Of a stretch of DNA of 30,995 bases, positions 10,988 through 26,868 are shown one piece after another (the stretch's first letter is position 1; each line of letters starts with the position of its first letter). The DNA comes from Chloroflexota bacterium (lineage in GTDB: Bacteria > Chloroflexota > Anaerolineae > UBA4142), in NCBI GenBank assembly GCA_016199405.1, contig JACQGS010000041.1, forward strand, positions 1 through 30,995, read 5' to 3'. The position numbers were made by a program, and so were the translations under genes. The notes beneath the pieces were generated by a model, which saw nothing but the letters and a program-made list of their open reading frames with translations, was not told the origin of the DNA and did no database searches.

Positions 10988-12031
10988 TTGACCGACAGCG
11001 CACTTGCGAATCTGACCGATGGGTTGATCCTGATTGATTCTGCGCACCGCATCGCTTTTGCAAACCCGCGCGCCGGAACTATGCTCGATGCGCGGGGATT
11101 GGGAATCGGCGCGGCAGCCGAGCAGTTCATCGAACAGATCGTCACGCAAAGTTCCAATGCGAAAGCAGCCCGCGTGCAGATCAGTGACGCGCTGGCGGCG
11201 GAGAGTGAAACTGCCGTCGAACTCGAACTGACGAACCCGCCCCGGCACATCTCGGCGCGATTTTTTCCACTGCGCGCGCCGCGCGGCAATCTCGGCACCG
11301 GCGTCCTCTTGCGCGATGTGACGCGCGAACGCCAAGCCGACGCGATGAAATCGCAATTGCTCTCGACCGTTTCGCACGAATTGCGCACGCCGCTCGCCTC
11401 GATCAAGGGTTTTGCGACGACGCTGTTGCGGCAAGATGTGAAGTGGGACGAAGCCACTCAGCGCGATTTTTTGCGGATCATTGAAGAGGAGACCGACCGG
11501 CTCACCGAGATCATTGACAACCTGCTCGATATGTCGCAGATCGAAGCCGGTGTGTTGCGGATAGCCAAAGAGCCAACGCAGTTGCGCTCGATTATCCGTG
11601 AGGTTGTCGACGAAATGCGGATGCGCACCGAAGCGCATTGGTTTGTGGTGGATTTGCCGGCGGATCTGCCGCGGATCATCGCCGACCCGCGGCGAATTCG
11701 ACAAGTCCTGCATAATCTAATTGAAAACGCGATCAAGTATACAGAAGGCGGACAGATTACGGTCGCATGCGAGATCGAGCCAGCGCAAGTGGTCGTCAGC
11801 GTTTCGGATCAAGGCGCGGGAATTGCGTCCGAGTATTCGGATAAAATATTCGAACGATTTTTTCAAATGGATGGCAAGTCGACCCGCCGAGTGGGCGGCG
11901 CGGGGCTGGGGTTATCGATCTCGCGCGGCATTATCGAGGCGCATGGCGGCAGAATTTGGGTGGAAAGTATTGTCGGACAAGGAAGTATTTTCCGTTTTGC
12001 ATTGCCCATTGCTCCCAACGAGACGAGTTGA
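10988..12031 (+). CDS. Cytoplasmic PAS-HisKA-HATPase histidine kinase (start uncertain)
   Basis: PAS start DGLILID...FANP, H-box VSHELRTPL, N-box VLHNLIENAIKY, DQGAGI, GAGLGLSIS. No TM segment; TTG start without a nearby SD. Confidence 0.9.
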   Translation: MTDSALANLTDGLILIDSAHRIAFANPRAGTMLDARGLGIGAAAEQFIEQIVTQSSNAKAARVQISDALAAESETAVELELTNPPRHISARFFPLRAPRGNLGTGVLLRDVTRERQADAMKSQLLSTVSHELRTPLASIKGFATTLLRQDVKWDEATQRDFLRIIEEETDRLTEIIDNLLDMSQIEAGVLRIAKEPTQLRSIIREVVDEMRMRTEAHWFVVDLPADLPRIIADPRRIRQVLHNLIENAIKYTEGGQITVACEIEPAQVVVSVSDQGAGIASEYSDKIFERFFQMDGKSTRRVGGAGLGLSISRGIIEAHGGRIWVESIVGQGSIFRFALPIAPNETS

Positions 12032-14162: not shown

Positions 14163-15749
14163 TTATCGCGGAATCAAAATGAAAATCGCGATCCACAATG
14201 CCACCAGCAATACCCACAACGTTGGATTCTGTTCCGCCACTGCCAGCATTTGGCGCGCCAGCGCGCCCACTTGATACGCGACGCGCCCCACCGATTGAAT
14301 GAGCCAGTCTAATTCGAATGCTCTCGCCGTACCGCGCAAGACTGCATCCACACGCGTTGGCGTGCGCCACTCTTGCCGCGCGAATCCCCACGCCATGAAT
14401 ATCGGGGCGATGACCACTGCCCAGCCGCCAATGATCGCGCCGGCAGCGGTCCCGTAAAATGCTTGCTGGGCGGCAAGCACCATTGAATCGCTCAGCGTAT
14501 CGCCCAACGCGCCGATGCCCAACGGCATCAACGTCATTCCAACAAACGCACCAGCAATTGCCAATAGCGCGAGGCGCTCGCGACGCATCAGGGCGCGTCG
14601 TTCCGCGGCTTGCATGCCCAAAGCAAAACGCCACAGCGAAATGCAGAGAAACAAACTCGTGATGGAAATCAACGCGAACAGCGCGCCCTGCGCCGATTCC
14701 CACAGCGCAATCAGCAAGTCGATGCGTCCGAGAAATGCCGGCGATAACGGCGCGCCGGCGAACGCGAAGATTCCGGCAATCCACACGAAGCGATACCACC
14801 GCGCGCGATTCTCGGCGCGCCATTTGAGCGCGATTTCAAATAGCGCAAGACCAAACGCGACGCTTAGTGTATTCCAAAACGTAATCGCGTAAGCGGCGTC
14901 GCCGCCAATGACAACTGCCAGCGGAATGAAGGCAACGCTCCAATTTGTCACCGCGCTCGCCGCCGGCGCGGGTTCTTCGGCGCGCCGCGCCCACAAGAAC
15001 GCAGCGAGCAATCCCGCGCCACTCAACGCAAGAATCCATTCAGCCGAGGGAGCGATCTTCCAGGCGTCGAAAGACAACCACAGAGTCGACGCGGCAATCA
15101 ACGGCGCGCCACGCGCGATCCACAAATCCCGTGCCGGAATCGCGCGTGGGCTTGCCATCCCGTGAAATGGAAATAATCCGAGTCTGCCCCACGCGCCCAG
15201 CGCGATGACCACAGCGGCAGATTCCGGCAATCGAGATGACGCCATCGCCGCGCCCGCAAAGAATATCAAGGTCGCGATCCAGCCGGTCGTCGCCGCGCGC
15301 GCAGCATCTTGGACTTGGACGCCGCGCGTCAAACGCCACGCGAGCAGCATAGCATCCAACGCGACCAAGGCGACGACCATCGTCAAAGGATTGGCGGCGA
15401 GGATCGCAAATCCGGCAGCGGCTAACACGGCGATTGACTGCGCGTCGAGTTTTTCCGGCGGCGCCACGAGCGCGAGGATCACTGGAATAAAATAGAGCAG
15501 GACCAAAAGGATAAGCCGCGCGCTGTCCAGCTCTAATGCCAAGCCAAAACTTAACTCAGGAACTTGGGCGATGACGGCGCGATGCGTTCCAGGCGCGCTG
15601 TTCAGCAAAATGAGCGCGAGGTTAATGCCATAAATGAAGAGCGACAACCACGGCGAGGCGTTGCGTGGTAAGCGTTTGATGAGCAACGTCGCCCCCAATA
15701 CGGCGACGATAGGAAAGAGGATGGGCAAAAGCAAAAAAAATTCCGGCAT
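14163..15749 (-). CDS. Divergent proton-conducting antiporter-like membrane subunit (NuoL/M/N-MrpD superfamily)
   Basis: Highly hydrophobic; GRLGLFPFHG resembles K.G.FPFH.W, and AGAPLSPAF resembles .G.PP..GF. ATG 15749 is preferred to 15803. Confidence 0.65.
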   Translation of the reverse strand: MPEFFLLLPILFPIVAVLGATLLIKRLPRNASPWLSLFIYGINLALILLNSAPGTHRAVIAQVPELSFGLALELDSARLILLVLLYFIPVILALVAPPEKLDAQSIAVLAAAGFAILAANPLTMVVALVALDAMLLAWRLTRGVQVQDAARAATTGWIATLIFFAGAAMASSRLPESAAVVIALGAWGRLGLFPFHGMASPRAIPARDLWIARGAPLIAASTLWLSFDAWKIAPSAEWILALSGAGLLAAFLWARRAEEPAPAASAVTNWSVAFIPLAVVIGGDAAYAITFWNTLSVAFGLALFEIALKWRAENRARWYRFVWIAGIFAFAGAPLSPAFLGRIDLLIALWESAQGALFALISITSLFLCISLWRFALGMQAAERRALMRRERLALLAIAGAFVGMTLMPLGIGALGDTLSDSMVLAAQQAFYGTAAGAIIGGWAVVIAPIFMAWGFARQEWRTPTRVDAVLRGTARAFELDWLIQSVGRVAYQVGALARQMLAVAEQNPTLWVLLVALWIAIFILIPR

Positions 15750-15783: not shown

Positions 15784-15808
15784 CACCCTCGCGGCGGACA
15801 CAAACTAT

Positions 15809-15843: not shown

Positions 15844-15957
15844 CTAGCAGTCTGTTGGAGAACCCGAAAGAAACCCGTTTTCTGTGCTACTCCGCTTCAT
15901 TGCGTCCGCTTGGCGAGAAAACGGGTTTCTGATTTGCCCTCTCCGACAACCTGCTAG
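15844..15957. mobile_element. MITE-like element bounded by CTAG
   Basis: Outer IR CTAGCAGTCTGTTGGAGA/TCTCCGACAACCTGCTAG (15/18); inner perfect 15-bp IR AGAAACCCGTTTTCT (15869-15883)/AGAAAACGGGTTTCT (15916-15930). Confidence 0.75.
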
Positions 15958-15973
15958 ATCAGTCTCTTCGCGA

Positions 15974-16846
15974 ATGGAAAAAATGGATCCCCGTGAAATC
16001 AAAGCCGCGCTCGCGCAAGCGTACGACGCGGCGGCGGAAGATTACGAACGCCTGAGTGTGCCAGTCATGCGCGGACTCGCCAAGCGATTGTTGCAGTACA
16101 TCGATTTGCGACCGGGCTGGCGCGTTTTGGATGCGGGCACCGGCACTGGCTTGCTCGCGCTCGCCGGCGCGCCGCGCGTTGGAAAAACCGGCAAGATGAT
16201 CGGGATCGATCCGTCCGAAAAAATGCTGGCGATTGCGCGTCGCAAAGCCGCGCAGTATGGATTCACGCAGTGCGAATTCGAGCGGGGAGATTTAGAAGGG
16301 TTGAGATTCCCGGACGCGCACTTTCAAGCTGCGCTCTCGCAGTTCGTGTTGCATCATACTGATTTCCCAATTGCGTTACGCGAGCTGGCGCGCGTGTTGG
16401 AGCCAGGCGGATGGTTGGTGTTGCAAGATTGGAGCGGTCAGCGGATCGAGCCGATCGATGTTTTTTATAAAGCCCTCGCTTCGGAACGTGGCGAGAGGGC
16501 AGAGGGTGCACTCGCGTTTTTGCGCGCTCAATCCGATCTCAACGGACAATTTTATCGCGCGTACGCCTACGCGGAGGGAATGCGCGGGGCGTTAGCGGCG
16601 GCTGGATTCGACGCGATCGAATTGCATGAGGAGCAGCCCCCCGCCCGCGCCAAGGATGTGGACGCGTTTTTGGATTTGGTGCTGGTTGCGCCGCTCGCGC
16701 GTGCGGAGTTGGAAGCATTGCCGAAGGGCGGGCGCGAATCGGTGCAGGCGCGCGCGCGGGAGGCGTTGATGCGCTGGATGACGCCGCGCGGGTTTGAGTG
16801 GAATTACTATACGATCGCGGTAGTCGCGCGCAAACGTGCCGCTTAG
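15974..16846 (+). CDS. Class I SAM-dependent methyltransferase (UbiE-like fold)
   Basis: VLDAGTGTG motif I, GIDPSEKML, GDLEGLRFPD, RVLEPGG. Start is ATG 15974 or 15983; the 15884 extension translates the MITE. Confidence 0.9.
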   Translation: MEKMDPREIKAALAQAYDAAAEDYERLSVPVMRGLAKRLLQYIDLRPGWRVLDAGTGTGLLALAGAPRVGKTGKMIGIDPSEKMLAIARRKAAQYGFTQCEFERGDLEGLRFPDAHFQAALSQFVLHHTDFPIALRELARVLEPGGWLVLQDWSGQRIEPIDVFYKALASERGERAEGALAFLRAQSDLNGQFYRAYAYAEGMRGALAAAGFDAIELHEEQPPARAKDVDAFLDLVLVAPLARAELEALPKGGRESVQARAREALMRWMTPRGFEWNYYTIAVVARKRAA

Positions 16847-16986
16847 GGTACCGCGTTCGTGACGCGGCTGAACAGATTGCCGATAAAGTTGCCGTAGGCG
16901 GCGACGACGGCAATGACGATGAGGAAAACAAAAACCAGAATAAGTGCGTACTCGGTTAATGCTGCGCCGCGCGCGCGTTGGAACAT
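16843..16986 (-). CDS. flp: Flp-family type IVb pilin (47 aa)
   Basis: Not in the ORF track. MFQRARG|AALTEYALILVFVFLIVIAVVAAYGNFIGNLFSRVTNAVP: Gly at the cleavage site, Glu+5, Tyr+6 and a hydrophobic helix. Strong SD GGAGGTGA 5 nt before the ATG. Confidence 0.88.
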   Translation of the reverse strand: MFQRARGAALTEYALILVFVFLIVIAVVAAYGNFIGNLFSRVTNAVP

Positions 16987-16987
16987 G

Positions 16988-19639
16988 CTAATCACCTCCT
17001 TGCGTCAGATGGGATTCCGTGTCTTTTCGAGTGAGCCGTTCGCGTTCCAAAACCGATTGATATAATTCCGCATTTGCAATCGCCGCACCCAAGTGATCGG
17101 CGAAGGCCGTAATAATCTTTGTATCCTCTTCGGCTAGTTCACTCTCTCCATAAACCTGGATTGCCAAAACGCCAAGGACGTGCGCGTCGCGGTGAATGGG
17201 CGCGGCAATTTCCTTGAGGACCCCGGCGCCGGCTTTCGGCGGGTTCGTTTCGCGCGTCACTCGACCAAAGGCAACTTGTCCGCTCTTCGCCGCGCGTTCT
17301 GCCAGCGCACTATTCGACGCGCCGGCCGGCGAATGCTCGTATCCAATTTTGGTTTTGAGCACGAGTTGCTCATTTTCGCAACGATAAATCGAAACGTGGG
17401 AATAGCCAAACGCATCGGCTAACCCCCGCACGGTCTTGCCGAAAATATCGGTGAGGTCGAGCGAGGCGCTGATCGCGCGGCTGATTTCGTTCAACAACTC
17501 TAACTCGCGTGCCCGTTGGGCGGCGGTCGCAAATAGCCGCGCGTTTTCCAGCGCGAGCGCGGCTTGCTGACCCACGGCGAGCAAGAAACGCTCGTCGCTG
17601 GCAGAGAAAGCATTCGGTTTGAAACTCTGTACCGACAAAACGCCGATGACGCGATCTTGAATCAGCATCGGTACGCCGAGCCAACTTCGCGCGGGACGCG
17701 TTTCGTGGCGCGGGCGAACCGGCAGCTGGTTACGTTCTTTTTCAAGATCGTCCACGCGTAAGCCCTTGCGGGTTTGGACGATCCAGGTCGTCAAGCCGGG
17801 CGCTTCCATTCGCAATGTAAATCCGCGCAACTCCCATCCTTCTTCCACTGCCATTTCGATTTTAACTTCTTGCCGCGCTTCATCATACAAGCCGACGAAA
17901 AAAGTATCCGGATCGATCACGCGTTGCACTTGCGTATGCAAAAGGCGAAGCTGCTCGTGCAAATCGAGTGTCGATGTCAACGCCAGTCCGATCTCGCGGA
18001 GCGATCCTAGCTCTTCCGCGCGACGATTGGCTTCGTCATAGAGACGCGTATTTTCGAGCGCGACGGCAAGTTGTTGCCCAATCGCGCTCAAGAGCGTGAG
18101 ATCGCTGGGTCCAACCCTCGCGGCTTCACGATGCCCAACGAGCAAGACCCCGGCGACGCGATCTTTGGACGCGATGGGCACGGCGGCAATGGTTTGCGCG
18201 TCTTCAAATGTTTGAAAAGTTTTCATTTCCGGATCGTCGTCTTGAGAGAGGACGATGGGCGTGTTAGTTTGAAACACGCGCCGCGCCAATGCTGGCGGAT
18301 TCGCGCGCGCATTTTCTAATGCCAGGAAGGATAATCCTTGTTGCGCGACGATGGACAGTTCGGAGTTGACCTCGCTCTTTAGCCAGACGATACCGATGGA
18401 CGCTTCAAGGACGTTCAATACAGCTTCGAGCGCGCGGGCGAGCAATTCTGCCGGCGGCAGAAATTGTGCGACCCGCCGCGTGGATTCGTACAAAGCCGTG
18501 AGTTCGCGCGCGCGGCGTTCGACTTGCGAATAAAGCGAAGCATTCCCAATCGCCAGCGCGGCTTGATCGGCAAGCGCATTCATCAAGTTTTGCTCATCAC
18601 GCGTGAACACGTGCGATGCTTGAAATGCCACGTTCATCACGCCGACGACGCGATCAGATTTTTTGAGCGGAAACGAGCCAATCGATTTTGTATTCCATGG
18701 CGGTGCTGCGGTTATCGGAAAAAGTGGATGACCTGCGACATCATCAATGAGCAGCGGCTCTTTGCTTTTGGCAACGGCGTGCGTTAACCCTTCTGCGCGG
18801 GGAGCGGTGAGTTCCCGGTGATTTGGCTCGTCTGCCCAAATCGCGATTCCGTATTCAAGCCGATCCGTTTCGGAATCGTACAAGAATATATGCACATCGT
18901 CGGCGTGGATTAGTTTCAGCGCGCTTTTTCCAATGGTGTCGAGGACTTGATTCAAATTCAAAGAAGCCGTCAGTTGCTCGCCAATCTCGCGGAGGGCGAC
19001 CAACTCACCGACGCGTTGCGCGAGTTCCGCTGAAGTCTGCGACAGACTGGCTTCGCGCCCGCGTAACTGTTCGGCGACCGCGCGCAAGTTATTCAAGCCC
19101 AGATACACAATCACCGCGATAAAAACGAGCGTGACGTAAATAAAGAGGGGGTTGCTGTACTCGGTCTCCAGCGGAAGTCCAATGGTGAGATGCGGAAGGA
19201 CGCGTGAAAATTCAAGGAACGCGTTTAGCCCCAGCGCCGCAAGCGCGCTCAAACTGGCGACCAAGCCCACGCGGGGACCGGCTTGCAGATCGATCACGAA
19301 AAGATACGCGACGAGTAGAAAGAGAAATGGACTTTCAATGCCGCCCGTGACGCGAATCGCGACGAGGAATAAAAGCAAGTCTATCGTGATGCGCGTATAA
19401 AGTAGCGTCGTCAATAGGCGCGGACCCGTAGCGGGCGCGCGATTCACGCGTGACGCCAGCGCGGCGATTAAGGACTGGCTTACGGCAGCGACACCAATGA
19501 GCGCCGTCAGCCCACCCAAGTTAAAGCGCATAAAGTGGTTGCCAATCAAATGCAAACCGCCGAGCACCAGGAGAGTCAGCCAACGGAGTCGGACGGTGCG
19601 CGGATTGACGAGACTGGCAAACGTTTTTTCAGTTTCCAT
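16988..19639 (-). CDS. Multi-TM sensor with four GAF domains and no output domain
   Basis: N-terminal TM bundle with a D...TGGIESPF motif, a coiled coil, and four GAF repeats ending AIGNASLY, ALENTRLY, ALENARLF and AIANAELY; stop 20 codons after the last. Confidence 0.85.
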   Translation of the reverse strand: METEKTFASLVNPRTVRLRWLTLLVLGGLHLIGNHFMRFNLGGLTALIGVAAVSQSLIAALASRVNRAPATGPRLLTTLLYTRITIDLLLFLVAIRVTGGIESPFLFLLVAYLFVIDLQAGPRVGLVASLSALAALGLNAFLEFSRVLPHLTIGLPLETEYSNPLFIYVTLVFIAVIVYLGLNNLRAVAEQLRGREASLSQTSAELAQRVGELVALREIGEQLTASLNLNQVLDTIGKSALKLIHADDVHIFLYDSETDRLEYGIAIWADEPNHRELTAPRAEGLTHAVAKSKEPLLIDDVAGHPLFPITAAPPWNTKSIGSFPLKKSDRVVGVMNVAFQASHVFTRDEQNLMNALADQAALAIGNASLYSQVERRARELTALYESTRRVAQFLPPAELLARALEAVLNVLEASIGIVWLKSEVNSELSIVAQQGLSFLALENARANPPALARRVFQTNTPIVLSQDDDPEMKTFQTFEDAQTIAAVPIASKDRVAGVLLVGHREAARVGPSDLTLLSAIGQQLAVALENTRLYDEANRRAEELGSLREIGLALTSTLDLHEQLRLLHTQVQRVIDPDTFFVGLYDEARQEVKIEMAVEEGWELRGFTLRMEAPGLTTWIVQTRKGLRVDDLEKERNQLPVRPRHETRPARSWLGVPMLIQDRVIGVLSVQSFKPNAFSASDERFLLAVGQQAALALENARLFATAAQRARELELLNEISRAISASLDLTDIFGKTVRGLADAFGYSHVSIYRCENEQLVLKTKIGYEHSPAGASNSALAERAAKSGQVAFGRVTRETNPPKAGAGVLKEIAAPIHRDAHVLGVLAIQVYGESELAEEDTKIITAFADHLGAAIANAELYQSVLERERLTRKDTESHLTQGGD

Positions 19640-19700: not shown

Positions 19701-19729
19701 TTGGTAAATTGTACGCTCCAGTCTATAAT
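19701..19729 (+). promoter_or_regulatory. Sigma70 promoter, probably giving a leaderless mRNA
   Basis: TTGGTA-17 nt-TATAAT; in-frame GTG 7 nt downstream (19737). Confidence 0.6.
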
Positions 19730-19736
19730 AGAACGC

Positions 19737-22118
19737 GTGAATGCGCTAGTCAATCGAACAAGGGTACTGTGGAACGCGCCCGACGTACGGCTACGCGCCG
19801 GATTGTTCTTGATCGCGCTGGCCGCGTATCTCCGAACCATGGCGCCGACGGTTTTGGATGGCGATAACGCCGAGTTTCAATATATGGCGTTCATTCTCGG
19901 CGTGCCGCATTCAAGCGGCTACCCGCTTTACATCCTCCTGACGAAACTGATGACCTTCCTACCGATTGGCGATGTCGCCTACCGCGTGAATTTATTTTCC
20001 GTGCTGTGCGCGGCGCTCGCGATTTCGTTGGTTTATGCGGTGGCAATGCGTGTGGTACACGCGCGCATCCCCGCGCTTTTGGCAACGCTCATCTTCGCCG
20101 TCACGCCGTCGGTCTGGGGCAGCGCGGTCGAAGTCAAGCCGTACTCGTTTCATTTGCTTTTGGGCGTGCTGACGATTCTCTTTGCGTTGCGTTGGCATCA
20201 GGAAGGGAATCGGCGCGATTTCTTTGCGCTGGCATTTGTGTACGGTTTGGGTTTGACTAACCATCACGTCATTCTTTTTCTTGCGCCCGCGCTCGCCTTG
20301 CTCGTTTGGCTCCATCGCCAGCAGATCAATCGCGCGATGGTCGCGCGCGGCGCAGTGTTGGCATTATTGCCTCTGTTACTTTACGCGTACCTGCCCCTGC
20401 GCGCCGATCATTTTATCCAACAGCAGGATCCGGAGAATTGGAAACTTTATACGCGCTCGGATGCAATTCTCAAAGGAACCGTCACGGCGTATTACAATCA
20501 TACGCCGCAAGGCGTTTTTGCTCTCATCACCGGCTTGGACAACAGTTACAAATTGGGATTCAAATCCGAGGAAGAACAAACCAGCCGGACGAGCACCGCC
20601 TTGAATTTATTGCTCGAGCAATTTGGATTCGCCGGGGCGGCGCTGGCGGCAGTGGGCGCGTGGGCGGCGTGGCGGCGGAATCGCCGCGAGTTTGCGTTCT
20701 TGGCGCTCGCCGGCGCGGGCATCGCGTTCATCGCGATTTATTTGCGGGGGATTTCGACCGTCTTTTACTTTTCGCTCGCGTATTTCATTCTCGCGTTGTG
20801 GATTGCCGATGGCTTTGCCGCGCTGTTGCGCTGGGGTGCGCGCGTGCGCGCGGAATCGCGCCACGCGTTCACGCGCCGGCTCGCGCAGCCGCGCATGATC
20901 GGCGCGATCCTCGCGCTCTTGCCCCTGACCGCGTTCGCCGCGAATTTTTCCAAGCTCGATCAGTCCAACGCGTATCTTGCGCGCGAGTACGCGCAACAAG
21001 TGCTTGCCGATCATCTCGCGCCGAACGCGGTCGTCATTGCGCCGTGGGAAGTGGCAGAAACGCTCCGCTATTTGCAATTCGTCGAGCATCAGCGCGAAGA
21101 TTTGCTCATCGTCAACGTTAGCCCGGTGCAACAACAATTTGAAACGATGCGCGTCAACGCGCGTACGCTCAATCGCCCGTTTTATCAGATTCAATTCAAT
21201 CCGGAAGACTACAACGCGCCTGGACCGCGGACTGTGCAAGCCATCCCGCTTCCGCTTTTGCAGCCGCCGCAGCCGCGCTACGCGCTCAACAAAAGCATTT
21301 TGGATGAAGTGAACGTGATCGGATATGATTTTGAGCCGGATCCACCCGAGCCCGGCAAACCGACGCGCTTGCTAATTTATTATCGCACGCTCGGACGAAT
21401 GTTTCCGATTTACTCTAGCTATCTAGACGTGAACGATCTGCTGGATCGAGCGTGGCTAGAACAGAGTGGTTTTCCCGGTTCGTTTTACTTTCCAACTTTT
21501 CGCTGGCAGCCCGGTGATATTTATCGCGAGGCGTGGTTGTTCACGCTGCCGCCGAATGCGCCGAACGGTTTGTATCATCTCGGCTTGAGTTGGTACGTTT
21601 ACGATCTCGACACGCGCAAAACCGATTACAGTCGCGAATTTTCTATATCTCTCGGCACGATTCGCGTTGGCGCAACGCCGACGCTCGCTTCGATTACGCG
21701 CCGCGTCGACGCGAGCAGCGCGCGCGGAATCGCGTTCGTTGGTTGGAATGCCGATCCCGCGCCGACGAATGATGTGATGATGCTCGCGCGCGGTCAGTCG
21801 CTCGATTTGGATTTATTTTGGCGCGCCGAACAAGCGATTCCGGAATCGTACACGGTTTTTGTGCATCTCGTTGACTCGACCGGCAAAGTATTTGCCGATG
21901 CAGACAGCCCGCCCTCGCGCGGCATTTTTCCGACCGATCGTTGGACGCCGGGCGAGATCGTGCGCGACCGGCATGCGCTCGTGATTCCAGCCGATCTCGC
22001 GCCCGGCGAATACGAGATCGAAATTGGAATGTATTTGCCATCAACCAATCAACGCCTCGCGTTCAATCGCGCGAGTCCGAATGATCGAATCGTTCTGACG
22101 CCGGTGCAAGTCAAATAG
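19737..22118 (+). CDS. DUF2723 (TMEM260-like) GT-C glycosyltransferase with C-terminal beta-sandwich domains
   Basis: TMAPTVLDGDNAEFQ...LGVPHSSGYPLY signature, GLGLTNH, many TMs; two C-terminal repeats of the type YTVFVHL...D..P....PT..W.PGE. The track start 19497 overlaps the divergent gene, so GTG 19737 is used. Confidence 0.82.
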   Translation: MNALVNRTRVLWNAPDVRLRAGLFLIALAAYLRTMAPTVLDGDNAEFQYMAFILGVPHSSGYPLYILLTKLMTFLPIGDVAYRVNLFSVLCAALAISLVYAVAMRVVHARIPALLATLIFAVTPSVWGSAVEVKPYSFHLLLGVLTILFALRWHQEGNRRDFFALAFVYGLGLTNHHVILFLAPALALLVWLHRQQINRAMVARGAVLALLPLLLYAYLPLRADHFIQQQDPENWKLYTRSDAILKGTVTAYYNHTPQGVFALITGLDNSYKLGFKSEEEQTSRTSTALNLLLEQFGFAGAALAAVGAWAAWRRNRREFAFLALAGAGIAFIAIYLRGISTVFYFSLAYFILALWIADGFAALLRWGARVRAESRHAFTRRLAQPRMIGAILALLPLTAFAANFSKLDQSNAYLAREYAQQVLADHLAPNAVVIAPWEVAETLRYLQFVEHQREDLLIVNVSPVQQQFETMRVNARTLNRPFYQIQFNPEDYNAPGPRTVQAIPLPLLQPPQPRYALNKSILDEVNVIGYDFEPDPPEPGKPTRLLIYYRTLGRMFPIYSSYLDVNDLLDRAWLEQSGFPGSFYFPTFRWQPGDIYREAWLFTLPPNAPNGLYHLGLSWYVYDLDTRKTDYSREFSISLGTIRVGATPTLASITRRVDASSARGIAFVGWNADPAPTNDVMMLARGQSLDLDLFWRAEQAIPESYTVFVHLVDSTGKVFADADSPPSRGIFPTDRWTPGEIVRDRHALVIPADLAPGEYEIEIGMYLPSTNQRLAFNRASPNDRIVLTPVQVK

Positions 22119-24173: not shown

Positions 24174-26486
24174 ATGTCCTCACGCGACCTCAAAATTCTC
24201 TTCGCTTACTTTTTTCTAGCGCTTGTTCTCACGTTCCCGCTCGCGCTAAATTTTTCCGATCATATCCCCGGCACGACGACCTGGTCAATGGACGAGTACG
24301 GATATGTTTGGAATAATTGGTGGTTCAAACATGCCGTGTTCGATCTGGGCGCGAATCCGTTTCAAACGAATTACCTGCTTTATCCGGTGGGCGCGTCACT
24401 GGTTTTGTACACGTTCACGCTATTGCACATCTTGCTCGGCTTGCCGATTCAATTTGCATTCGGTCTAATTCCGGCGAGCAACGCGGAATTGTTGTTTTCT
24501 TTTGCGCTCAACGGATACGGCGCGTATTTGCTCGCGCGTTATTTATTGCGCGTCGGCAATGCGCGTTTTGCTGCGCCCGCCGCGTTCATCGCCGGCGCGC
24601 TGTTCGCATTTTCCTCGAATCACTTTGTATACGCCGCGCTCGGGCACTACAACGTCGTTGGAACGGAATGGATTCCCTTTTTCATTTTGTTTTTGATCAA
24701 GACCGTGCGCGAGCCGGCGCGCAAGAACGCTCTCCTCGCCGGCTTATTCGCGGCATTCGCCATGTACGTGGAAACGACGAGCGGCGTCTGGATGTTGCTC
24801 TTTGCCCTGATTTATTTGCTCTCGCATTGGCGCGCTACGTTTCACCGCGCGGCGCTCGCGCGGCTTGCGCTTGCCGGCGCGACCGCCGCGATTTTGTTCG
24901 CGCCCTTGCTGCTGCCAACCCTCGATGAGATTCTGAACAGCGGCTATGTGCTTCCCGGTTGGGGACACGCGGAAAAATTATTGGTCGATCTATTTGGATT
25001 TTTCGTTCCGACGAGTTTGCATCCGCTCGTCGGCGGCTGGACCCAAGAACTCGACCGCGTGCGGCAGGGCATCTCGCGGTTTGTGGATGTCAACACCGTC
25101 TTCATCGGCTACGTCACGCTCGCGCTTGCGCTAATTGCCGTGCGGCGTTATGGGCGAACCGTCAAACTATGGGCGGTCTGCGCAATTGCTTTTGGAATTT
25201 TGAGTCTCGGTCCGTTATTGCACATCAACGGTCAATCGCAATTTGATTTGGATGGATTGGTCGCGTCTGTGCCCCTTCCATTTTTGCTCTTGCATTACAT
25301 TCCCTTTCTGAAAGAAAATCGCGTCCCGAACCGCTTTAGCATTCTGATGATGCTCTCGCTCGCGATGCTGGTCGCGTACGGCGCGGCGTGGTTGATCGAA
25401 AAAATCGCGGCGGGGCGCGGGAATGCGCGCGGAACGAATACGCGCGCGCAAATTGTCGCCGGCGTTTTGCTGATTGGAGTTTTGTTCGAGCACGCGTCGG
25501 TTCCGTTGCCGCTGACCGATGCGCGCGTGCCGGATGTTTTCGCGCAGATCGCGCGCGAGCCGGGCGATTTCGCGATTCTCACGCTGCCCTTCGGCTTGCG
25601 GAATTCGTTCGGCGGCATTGGCGCGGAGGATACGCGCACGCAATATTACCAGAGCGTGCATCAGAAATTTATTTTTCCGGCAAACCTTCAGCGCAACCCG
25701 CCGTTTGTCTTTGACTATTTTGATCGCCTTTCGCTCTTCCATTCGCTGGCGGAGATCGAATTGTATCGCGACGTTTCCGACGAAATTCGCGCGCAGGATC
25801 AACGCGACGCGCCCGCGCTCATGGCGTTCTTCGACGTGCGTTATCTCGTGATCAACGCCGCGCCCCCGAACCGCGTCCCTTTCAGTGATACGCGCGCGGC
25901 GACGATCGAATACGCGCGCGCGGTCTTGCCGCTCGGCGAAAAAATCTATGACCGCGACGACGTAATCGCGTATCGCGTCAATCCAGCGCCGCTCCTCGCC
26001 AAACTGCAAATCGATTTTGGTGCCACTACCGCGCAACTTTATCAGGGCGAGGGCTGGGATCGCGCGGAGACGCTCGACGACGTGCGTGCGAATTGGGTGA
26101 ATCGAAAAACCGCGCGCGTATTTTTTCCGTTGCGCGAAATTTCCGATTACGCGCTCACGCTGCGCGCGTTGCCGTTTAATTTTGCCGGCGCGGCACAACA
26201 GACGATGGAGATCGTGGCGAATGGGCAAGCGCTTGGCAAGTTTGATTTGAAAGCGAGTTGGAGTGATTATTCCGTGACACTACCCGCACGGGTGTTGCAT
26301 AGCGGGTTGAATGAGATTAATTTGAGTTTTGCGCGCTTGAATCGACCGCGCGATGTTTCGCCCGCGCAACGTGCGATCGGCAGAACCGGCGCAACGACGC
26401 CGGTAGACTTGCAGGTGCGCGCGGGGGGAGTTAGCATCGGTCAAAGTGAACGATCGCGAAAGCGCGCGGCAAACGCGTGGCTATAA
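24174..26486 (+). CDS. YfhO-like GT-C membrane protein, 5' part of a frameshifted gene
   Basis: LTFPL...DHIPG...WNNWW...ANPFQTNYLLYPVG, LSLGP, RVPNRF motifs; C-terminal beta-sandwich; the last 15-20 codons are out of frame. Confidence 0.75.
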   Translation: MSSRDLKILFAYFFLALVLTFPLALNFSDHIPGTTTWSMDEYGYVWNNWWFKHAVFDLGANPFQTNYLLYPVGASLVLYTFTLLHILLGLPIQFAFGLIPASNAELLFSFALNGYGAYLLARYLLRVGNARFAAPAAFIAGALFAFSSNHFVYAALGHYNVVGTEWIPFFILFLIKTVREPARKNALLAGLFAAFAMYVETTSGVWMLLFALIYLLSHWRATFHRAALARLALAGATAAILFAPLLLPTLDEILNSGYVLPGWGHAEKLLVDLFGFFVPTSLHPLVGGWTQELDRVRQGISRFVDVNTVFIGYVTLALALIAVRRYGRTVKLWAVCAIAFGILSLGPLLHINGQSQFDLDGLVASVPLPFLLLHYIPFLKENRVPNRFSILMMLSLAMLVAYGAAWLIEKIAAGRGNARGTNTRAQIVAGVLLIGVLFEHASVPLPLTDARVPDVFAQIAREPGDFAILTLPFGLRNSFGGIGAEDTRTQYYQSVHQKFIFPANLQRNPPFVFDYFDRLSLFHSLAEIELYRDVSDEIRAQDQRDAPALMAFFDVRYLVINAAPPNRVPFSDTRAATIEYARAVLPLGEKIYDRDDVIAYRVNPAPLLAKLQIDFGATTAQLYQGEGWDRAETLDDVRANWVNRKTARVFFPLREISDYALTLRALPFNFAGAAQQTMEIVANGQALGKFDLKASWSDYSVTLPARVLHSGLNEINLSFARLNRPRDVSPAQRAIGRTGATTPVDLQVRAGGVSIGQSERSRKRAANAWL

Positions 26487-26868
26487 TCTCGCGGTCATTG
26501 ACCCACGCACAAATGCCGTCTTGGAGTCGCGGGGGTTCAATACGATTGACGACCGCGTCGGCTCGCGCGCGTTGACCGCGTTCATCGAAAATATTCCGGC
26601 GGGCATGATTGTGATCGTCGCGTCGCAAGGCGCCGCGGCGGTCAACCTGGGCGACCGCGCGGCAAACGCGTTTCAGTTGCTGGGCGGCACAGGCGATCCG
26701 CGCGCACAGGCGTCGAAGGCATACGCGCTCATCGGCGTTAAAGGCGCGGCAGCCGGAACCGCGCTGGAATCATTTCAAGAAGGCGCGGCGTTCGCGTGGA
26801 TCGGACGCAATCCGGATGATCGCACGCTCGCTGCCGCCGTCAGCGCGATCACGATTGAAAAGAAATGA
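26407..26868 (+). pseudogene. ILEI/PANDER (FAM3-like) domain: +1-frame continuation of the 24174 gene
   Basis: The +1 frame is open from 26407 and reads ...GELASVKVNDRESARQTRGYNLAVIDP...FIENIPAGMIVIVAS...YALIGVKG; the frame switch maps to the G6 tract at 26423-26428; ATGA coupling to the next gene. Confidence 0.7.

Follow-up and report, generated by a model that had tools for sequence, protein, structure and literature searches.

What might a membrane protein with an elaborate sensory architecture but no enzymatic output be doing beside a pilin gene? The question is posed by a gene that we call TM-GAF (transmembrane-GAF), which lies in a 30,995-nucleotide stretch of DNA (hereafter, the window) comprising positions 1 to 30,995 of contig JACQGS010000041.1 in assembly GCA_016199405.1 of a Chloroflexota bacterium. 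TM-GAF encodes a six-helix membrane module followed by GAF domains, and an initial annotation of the sequence had proposed, with the link to PilS given as tentative, that the protein is a PilS-like receptor or scaffold that has no kinase, is co-expressed with the adjacent Flp pilin, senses or holds that pilin, and signals in trans. We find that TM-GAF is genuine and under selection, a variant without a kinase that belongs to a known class of sensors and is situated in an unexplained membrane operon, and that the specific claim of PilS-like pilin sensing is weak. Our preferred reading, which is tentative, is that TM-GAF is an accessory non-enzymatic membrane sensor or scaffold that was added to an older unit consisting of the pilin gene (flp) and a gene for a NuoL-like membrane protein, with the NuoL-like protein as its most likely target and Flp as a facultative passenger. 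The features of the gene are as follows.

16988-19639, minus strand: TM-GAF, kinase-less gene for a six-transmembrane (6TM) plus four-GAF protein (P0001), 883 aa; from the open reading frame (ORF) and Pfam
19025-19639, minus strand: six-helix membrane module of the RegB/PilS class leading into a long signaling helix, residues 1-205; from AlphaFold2 (AF2), hhalign and Foldseek
19325-19348, minus strand: TGGIESPF motif, residues 98-105, on the loop joining helices 3 and 4; from alignment and AF2
17045-18958, minus strand: four tandem GAF domains; from Pfam and alignment

ORF, Pfam and AF2 evidence agree on an 883-residue membrane plus four-GAF protein that ends after GAF4, as initially annotated. 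The GAF families all score above Pfam thresholds (GAF_2 180.9 bits, GAF 172.6, GAF_3 167; four stretches each). Pfam places GAF1-3 at residues 228-364, 397-530 and 558-698, and alignment places GAF4 at residues ~725-865. Pfam detected GAF families only: no output domain and no HisKA/HATPase core, the stop codon following GAF4. The AF2 model of residues 1-215 (48 sequences; mean pLDDT 90.8) has six helices (residues 13-37, 42-67, 73-97, 105-120, 122-144 and 164-214), the last of which continues into the cytoplasm. The Asp ahead of TGGIESPF is D87, making the spacing D-x10-TGG rather than the D-x8-TGG originally given. The protein is a non-enzymatic membrane sensor or scaffold whose GGxxSP loop, joining helices 3 and 4, is on the outer side of the membrane.

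The absence of a kinase is not peculiar to the window. Eight further proteins (P0002-P0009; 42-88% identity), mostly of 1030-1076 aa with five GAF domains, likewise consist of a membrane module and GAF domains only. On sequence comparison, therefore, the kinase-less state is a trait of the clade (nine loci) with five GAF domains as the norm, and does not stem from a kinase truncated in one lineage alone. Next in relatedness are P0010 and P0012 (37% identity across the length in common) and ~1840-aa genes in three genomes (G385, G240 and G404), all of which carry an extra (sixth) GAF domain plus a HisKA-HATPase core; they have radical-SAM and HTH genes upstream and a REC-GAF-kinase gene downstream, with no flp and no NuoL-like neighbor. 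By these alignments, TM-GAF belongs to a small Chloroflexota clade that has lost the kinase core from a 6TM-GAFn-HisKA-HATPase ancestry. The clade tree is a polytomy and the loci come from related genomes, so that counts of loci are not counts of independent events.

The TM-GAF gene is under purifying selection. Compared with its 88%-identical relative at locus L001, dN/dS is 0.195 overall, 0.14 in the membrane module and 0.12 in GAF3, the per-domain range being 0.12-0.26. These low values disfavor the possibility that TM-GAF is a decaying, functionless remnant of a sensor kinase, as do the ORFs of 880-1076 aa kept in nine lineages down to 42% identity and the retention of conserved sensor residues. 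Decay would account for the loss of the kinase core, the loss of GAF5 in two lineages, the frameshifted C-terminal end of the window copy, and an internal deletion in the membrane module of P0008, but we consider it very unlikely. P0008 (L086 3001-5691) is missing ~125 residues spanning helices 2-5, including the GGxxSP loop, behind a normal 5' region and promoter block; this gap reflects either a genuine loss within the gene or an assembly error.

The end of the window gene, and its close spacing to flp, have a separate explanation, which involves three further features.

16843-16986, minus strand: flp, gene for an Flp-type prepilin, 47 aa, predicted cleavage G7/A8, 40-aa mature form; from motif, Pfam and profile
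16995-17000, minus strand: Shine-Dalgarno (SD) sequence AGGAGG of flp, within the last TM-GAF codons in this lineage only; from sequence and alignment with L001
17026-17027, minus strand: junction of a 497-nt deletion; from DNA alignment with L001 and run contigs

TM-GAF ends in CAA GGA GGT GAT TAG, with the stop at 16990-16988. Just as the initial annotation had described, its last codons contain the SD sequence of flp (AGGAGG, 17000-16995), and the flp ATG (16986-16984) begins 1 nt past the stop. The nearest relative, P0002 (locus L001; 88% identity), is 1043 aa long, has GAF5 and its own TGA stop, and is separated from flp by an 18-nt spacer bearing the same SD sequence. Aligning the two DNAs leaves a clean 497-nt gap in the window, with GAF5 gone. 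As 497 is not divisible by three, the reading frame is shifted and continues through the old stop and the SD sequence to a TAG just ahead of the flp ATG. The junction is spanned with zero mismatches by Logan contigs from three groundwater runs of one study (X1-X3; low depth, with a word depth of ~2), so the deletion is real and not an assembly artifact. Judged from the alignment, then, having only four GAF domains and a stop/SD overlap is peculiar to the window lineage, and both are by-products of the deletion. P0003 (60% identity, 880 aa) also lacks GAF5, with an end point that differs from the window's, and its loss is read as independent.

The same scar bears on whether TM-GAF and a PAS kinase gene at 10988-12031 are the halves of one gene split by a ~6-kb inversion. 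Such a split would explain a GAF protein without an output domain lying 5 kb from a soluble PAS-HisKA-HATPase gene on the other strand. However, the 88%-identical relative runs on into GAF5 and its own stop, and the end of the window gene is a deletion scar, not an inversion breakpoint. Moreover, the PAS kinase exists as a separate gene in the same relative orientation (63-74% identity) in loci with TM-GAF (L002, L027) and in loci without it (L028, L029, L031, L034). The inversion is contradicted by this synteny and by the scar, and was rejected as scarcely credible.

The initial annotation had likened the membrane module to that of PilS. A search with residues 1-205 against 1.8 billion representatives returned 80 proteins, mostly of 430-480 aa. 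Among 53 of these remote homologs that were scanned, most had HisKA and HATPase domains, 48 matched the Pfam model 6TM_PilS (PF25323), and 51 matched the NCBIfam ActS/PrrB/RegB model. Since the same proteins match both models, the PilS and RegB modules appear to be one superfamily, and an hhalign comparison of the clade's membrane-region alignment with the 53 6TM kinases (probability 99.9%, E 4.6e-36, 211 columns) supports placing TM-GAF within it. The TM-GAF protein itself did not match PF25323 at E≤0.01, nor at E≤1 in the genome search, and its link to 6TM_PilS is, at the level of profiles, only transitive via the remote homologs. The NCBIfam ActS/PrrB/RegB model NF033792 aligned residues 15-200 with an E of 0.0019, a score far under that model's whole-protein cut-off. 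In a Foldseek comparison of the membrane model with Swiss-Prot AlphaFold models, ranks 1 and 2 were both RegB of Cereibacter (TM-score by query 0.62-0.64 over ~200 residues, root-mean-square deviation 4 Å), and PilS was not among the 30 matches listed. A fold search of the PDB gave no solved structure under E 0.9.

The module has kept sensor residues of its kinase relatives and, in part, those of the RegB quinone site. R19, W20, D87, G99, G100 and E143 are conserved jointly in the clade and in the kinases; across the 48 sequences G99 is invariant and G100 nearly so, and S103 is invariant within the clade. In RegB, ubiquinone is bound by a GGXXNPF motif on the periplasmic side, in the loop that links helices 3 and 4, with N110, F112, R31 and Q38 being required (PMC3000548). 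The position of TGGIESPF corresponds to this quinone site: the equivalent of GGXXNPF is GGIESPF, in the right place, with Ser for Asn clade-wide and a variable residue (F, V or L) at the Phe position. R19-W20 in helix 1 is nearly invariant, with no Gln seven residues on, and the alignment pattern suggests that R19 is equivalent to RegB R31. Modules of this kind are widespread in the class: 401 genomes were searched and 134 have one, for the most part within a kinase of 460-670 aa. No flp motif was found within 1.5-kb flanks of 29 other 6TM sensor genes of the class. The module is assigned to the RegB/PilS sensor class, with a ligand that is not readable from the sequence.

The region upstream of TM-GAF gave evidence about its expression and its place in the locus.

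19725-19753, minus strand: promoter-like site for the TM-GAF/flp unit (TTGACT, 17-nt spacer, TATTAT); consensus scan 10/12
19701-19729, plus strand: facing promoter-like site for a divergent GT-C glycosyltransferase (GT) gene (TTGGTA, 17-nt spacer, TATAAT); consensus scan 10/12

The -10 boxes of the two facing sites overlap, forming a compact bidirectional block (19701-19753) that is unique in the assembled genome. The block, TTGAC..TCAC..TATTATA(A/G)AC..CCAAAT, lies ahead of TM-GAF in the window and in nine other loci that were fetched (eight distinct genes), and immediately ahead of flp in five loci without TM-GAF, making 15 loci in all. Part of its conservation may be due to coding constraint because the minus-strand -35 box is inside the first codons of the divergent GT gene (GTG at 19737). 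The plus-strand TATAAT ends 7 nt before this GTG, which suggests that the mRNA of this TMEM260-like GT gene is leaderless. The consensus scan found no promoter-like or terminator-like site on the minus strand between TM-GAF and flp. As the sole promoter-like site on that strand is upstream of TM-GAF, the two genes are very probably co-transcribed; no RNA runs containing TM-GAF/flp sequence were found, so co-transcription is inferred from the DNA. Co-expression with the pilin, as first proposed, is very probable on account of the promoter. Comparison of the loci indicates that TM-GAF fills a slot between flp and the promoter that precedes flp where TM-GAF is absent.

Two more window genes complete the picture downstream.

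14163-15749, minus strand: polytopic membrane protein of NuoL/ND5/MrpA fold, 528 aa (546 with an alternative TTG start at 15803); from AF2 and Foldseek
15884-16846, plus strand: class I methyltransferase, between flp and the NuoL-like gene; from ORF and Pfam

The order conserved in relatives is an opposite-strand GT-C cluster (TMEM260/PMT-like), TM-GAF, a 49-51-aa flp, and a ~525-aa membrane protein without a Pfam match. The census comprises nine distinct TM-GAF loci; one (L086) is cut by a contig end, so that counts of flp cover eight determinable loci. The gene follows TM-GAF in four of these (the window, L001, L002 and L003/L004) and is absent from the other four (L005, L006, L084 and L085), where the NuoL-like gene comes directly after TM-GAF. 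The synteny with flp that the initial annotation had named as a check was found in half of these loci, and flp also occurs without TM-GAF. The polytomy of the clade tree does not allow losses of flp to be counted. The NuoL-like gene was downstream in all seven TM-GAF loci in which this could be determined, and in L084 the GAF and NuoL-like genes, as called, have 8 nt in common. Two of the flp-less loci have a non-coding slot between the GAF and NuoL-like genes (L005 8127-8315, L085 3855-4061); the slot in L005 contains a repeated element whose translation repeats a 12-residue stretch.

Scanning species genomes with the NuoL-like protein yielded ten more loci, only one of which (L027) has TM-GAF, in the same place as L005. 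The remaining loci have the same divergent GT gene (54-60% identity), and in seven (L028, L029, L031, L032, L033, L035 and L036) an flp-like gene is upstream of the NuoL-like gene without TM-GAF. A search for a TM-GAF ortholog elsewhere in five genomes having flp and the NuoL-like gene gave only ~30%-identical matches to the GAF region, with no coverage of the membrane module. Hence the promoter, flp and the NuoL-like gene also occur without TM-GAF, but in determinable loci TM-GAF was never seen without the NuoL-like gene. The TAG stop of the methyltransferase overlaps the TAA stop of flp (TTAG), leaving no room for terminators; this arrangement is also present in L028 and L031, and not in L002-L004. 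Elsewhere in the window (24174-26868), a GT-C gene (770 aa) and an ILEI-domain ORF (140 aa) overlap in different frames. Relatives L003, L005 and L006 have instead a single protein of 893-902 aa that ends in ILEI, which suggests that the window copy carries a frameshift or a sequencing error.

The NuoL-like protein had no match in Pfam (including Proton_antipo_M) or NCBIfam. Its AF2 model has a mean pLDDT of 76.8, with a broken helix at residues 175-225. Foldseek matched this model to NuoL chains in the PDB (E 1e-10, TM-score ~0.7), Swiss-Prot models agreed, and Atlas features of the protein point to Proton_antipo_M; Atlas clusters of the family have 52, 344 and 51 members. The invariant charged residues are D132, R139, R189, R213, E305, R385 and E391, versus the usual Lys/Glu chain, to which they may be structurally equivalent. 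The gene stands alone, and in many Chloroflexota loci an flp-like gene is directly upstream.

The pilin assignment itself held up. The window Flp begins M-F-Q-R-A-R-G|A-A-L-T-E-Y, followed by a hydrophobic helix, which fits the G|xxxxEY prepilin layout and gives the 40-aa mature form originally predicted. The window protein scored 18.2 bits against Pfam Flp_Fap, below the gathering cut-off of 32.2; all ten family members matched Flp_Fap (10/10; best E 4.6e-7), and the family profile matched the solved Tad pilins 8u1k (Caulobacter PilA) and 8u2b with E values of 6e-5 to 7e-5. Orthologs are 72-90% identical. A Flp-like protein in L029 (5609-5764) has Ala for Gly at the predicted cleavage position (-1). 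No Tad or peptidase genes occur within the window, and its flp is outside any tad locus. The source genome, a 2.8-Mb metagenome-assembled genome that is 69.5% complete, does encode three A24 prepilin peptidases, four T2SSE ATPases, and TadB/C-like pairs on contigs C3, C87 and C83. Given this machinery, processing and assembly of the window pilin are plausible. Two tad-like sets are present on contig C3 (~1.5-5 kb and 12-15 kb), and each includes an flp; there is another CpaF/TadB/TadC set on C87 and, on C83, a type IV pilus-like set with a peptidase. A second orphan flp, ~45% identical to that of the window, is on the 1.9-kb contig C221.

These data allow the pilin-sensing idea to be weighed. 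It holds that the membrane module binds the membrane pool of mature Flp by helix-helix contacts, like PilS with PilA or PleC with type IVc PilA, and either holds the pilin or reports its level in trans. Pilin sensing by the membrane segments of kinases has precedents in PilS and, with an Flp-type pilin, in PleC (PMC6058289, citing Kilmury and Burrows 2016; PMC7196804). In its favor, TM-GAF and flp form one predicted transcription unit in four loci, behind the flp promoter of genomes that lack TM-GAF; the module is within a superfamily that includes PilS; the small gene is well conserved; and with prepilin peptidases and Tad machinery in the genome, mature Flp should exist in the membrane. Against it, four intact orthologs (1030-1076 aa) have no flp at the locus, while flp is behind the same promoter block in five loci without TM-GAF and an flp-like gene precedes the NuoL-like gene in seven. 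In both structure and profile the best match is to RegB rather than PilS, neither the 29 other 6TM sensors nor the kinase-bearing nearest relatives are near flp, and the tight stop/SD overlap came about through a recent deletion. The idea loses weight because orthologs lack an adjacent flp, because flp occurs without the sensor, and because the module is closer to RegB, so that dedicated pilin sensing is possible but unlikely. A complex prediction for residues 1-215 (13-row alignment) with mature Flp scored 0.00, but was run without controls and counts neither way. More broadly, we consider it similarly unlikely that TM-GAF is an intramembrane receptor for a co-encoded membrane protein, be it the mature Flp pool or the NuoL-like protein, that signals without enzymatic output.

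TM-GAF might instead modulate a complete 6TM-GAF histidine kinase in trans, either serving as a decoy or joining it in a heteromer through the membrane and coiled-coil modules that the two share, with the gene neighbors irrelevant to its function. Descent from 6TM-GAFn-kinase relatives with the sensor residues kept is consistent with such modulation, as is the dispensability of the C-terminal GAF domains, GAF5 having been lost twice independently. Furthermore, the genome has at least one other 6TM-GAF-HisKA_2-HATPase kinase, on contig C138. That kinase is distant, however, being missed by the TM profile at E≤1e-8 and matching PF25323 with 18.6 bits, and a close kinase paralog was not found in the 70%-complete genome. 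The fixed position of TM-GAF in the flp/NuoL-like unit, in all nine loci, is also left unexplained, and we regard a role as kinase modulator as doubtful. The C138 locus (L087, G000:C138; 605-3373 and 3395-5839, both minus strand) holds this second 6TM protein, a full kinase with a weak 6TM_PilS match, GAF domains, HisKA_2/HWE and HATPase; a GyrB gene interrupted by an intein adjoins it.

We therefore return to the reading that we tentatively prefer, an accessory sensor or scaffold in the NuoL-like unit. That unit consists of a bidirectional promoter common to the GT-C cluster, then TM-GAF and flp, each of them optional, and then the NuoL/MrpA-like gene. The membrane module would still sense a membrane-borne cue as its kinase relatives do, either quinone/redox state or the membrane helix of a partner. 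The GAF array would bind cytoplasmic ligands or partners, and output would be via protein-protein contact in place of phosphotransfer. The co-transcribed NuoL-like protein would be the most likely target of such contact, and the Flp pilin may be a facultative passenger of the operon.

Several points weigh against this reading. Any link between TM-GAF and the NuoL-like protein, physical or regulatory, is conjectural, and the adjacency comes from one related, syntenic group of genomes, so that seven of seven are not seven independent events. In the window the opposite-strand methyltransferase stands between flp and the NuoL-like gene, and these two genes are consequently not on one transcript there. 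The quinone residues of RegB are only partly kept, N110 being replaced by Ser, Q38 being absent and the Phe not being conserved in the clade (RegB residues from PMC3000548). The GAF domains offer no assignable ligand. Finally, the repeated losses of parts (GAF5 twice and the membrane deletion in P0008) hint at relaxed constraint on some modules.

Little is understood of sensors that combine an elaborate input, here a 6TM module plus four or five GAF domains, with a lack of any enzymatic output. A small clade that is under selection, of kinase origin and fixed in genomic position makes the question of output-less signaling concrete, with two candidate partners. The analysis also removes an attractive but weak story, that of dedicated Flp sensing by a PilS-like module, and brings out an undescribed conserved pairing in which an Flp-type gene accompanies a divergent NuoL/MrpA-like protein that stands alone, downstream of a compact bidirectional promoter common to a protein-O-mannosyltransferase-like cluster. 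If TM-GAF were the intramembrane receptor that we consider unlikely, the Flp-like peptide, the NuoL-like protein and the RegB-type sensor would constitute an undescribed Chloroflexota membrane module in which a pilin-like helix is tied to antiporter-like energy coupling. The hosts are uncultured groundwater Chloroflexota, and the practical impact is modest.

Among known systems, the closest in structure are the RegB/PrrB/ActS sensors, which share with TM-GAF the six-helix module (the best structural match), the long helix into the cytoplasm, the conserved GG-x-x-x-P in the helix 3-4 loop, and probably the conserved Arg in helix 1 (R19 in TM-GAF). TM-GAF differs in having no HisKA/HATPase core and no redox Cys box, in having four or five GAF domains in their place, and in belonging to a member of the Chloroflexota. 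It differs from RegB in particular by the Ser in place of the ubiquinone-binding Asn, the missing helix 1 Gln and the unconserved Phe (RegB: PMC3000548). PilS of Pseudomonas aeruginosa and the PleC-PilA pair of Caulobacter resemble TM-GAF in having a polytopic module of the same broad superfamily and, for some TM-GAF loci, a pilin gene in the transcription unit. Unlike PilS, TM-GAF has no 6TM_PilS match, no kinase and no PilR-type partner in the window, and its linked pilin is of the Flp type and is absent from half of the orthologous loci. The Chloroflexota 6TM-GAFn-HisKA-HATPase kinases have the same membrane module, the first five GAF domains (37% identity) and the sensor residues, but add a sixth GAF domain and the kinase core and have another gene context, without an flp or NuoL-like neighbor. 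Lastly, the window pilin resembles the Flp/Tad (type IVc) pilins such as Caulobacter PilA (8u1k) in its G|xxxxEY motif, its single hydrophobic helix and its mature length of 40 aa; it departs from them in scoring below the Pfam cut-off, in lying outside a tad locus, and in the pairing of its kind with a NuoL-like gene in many Chloroflexota loci.

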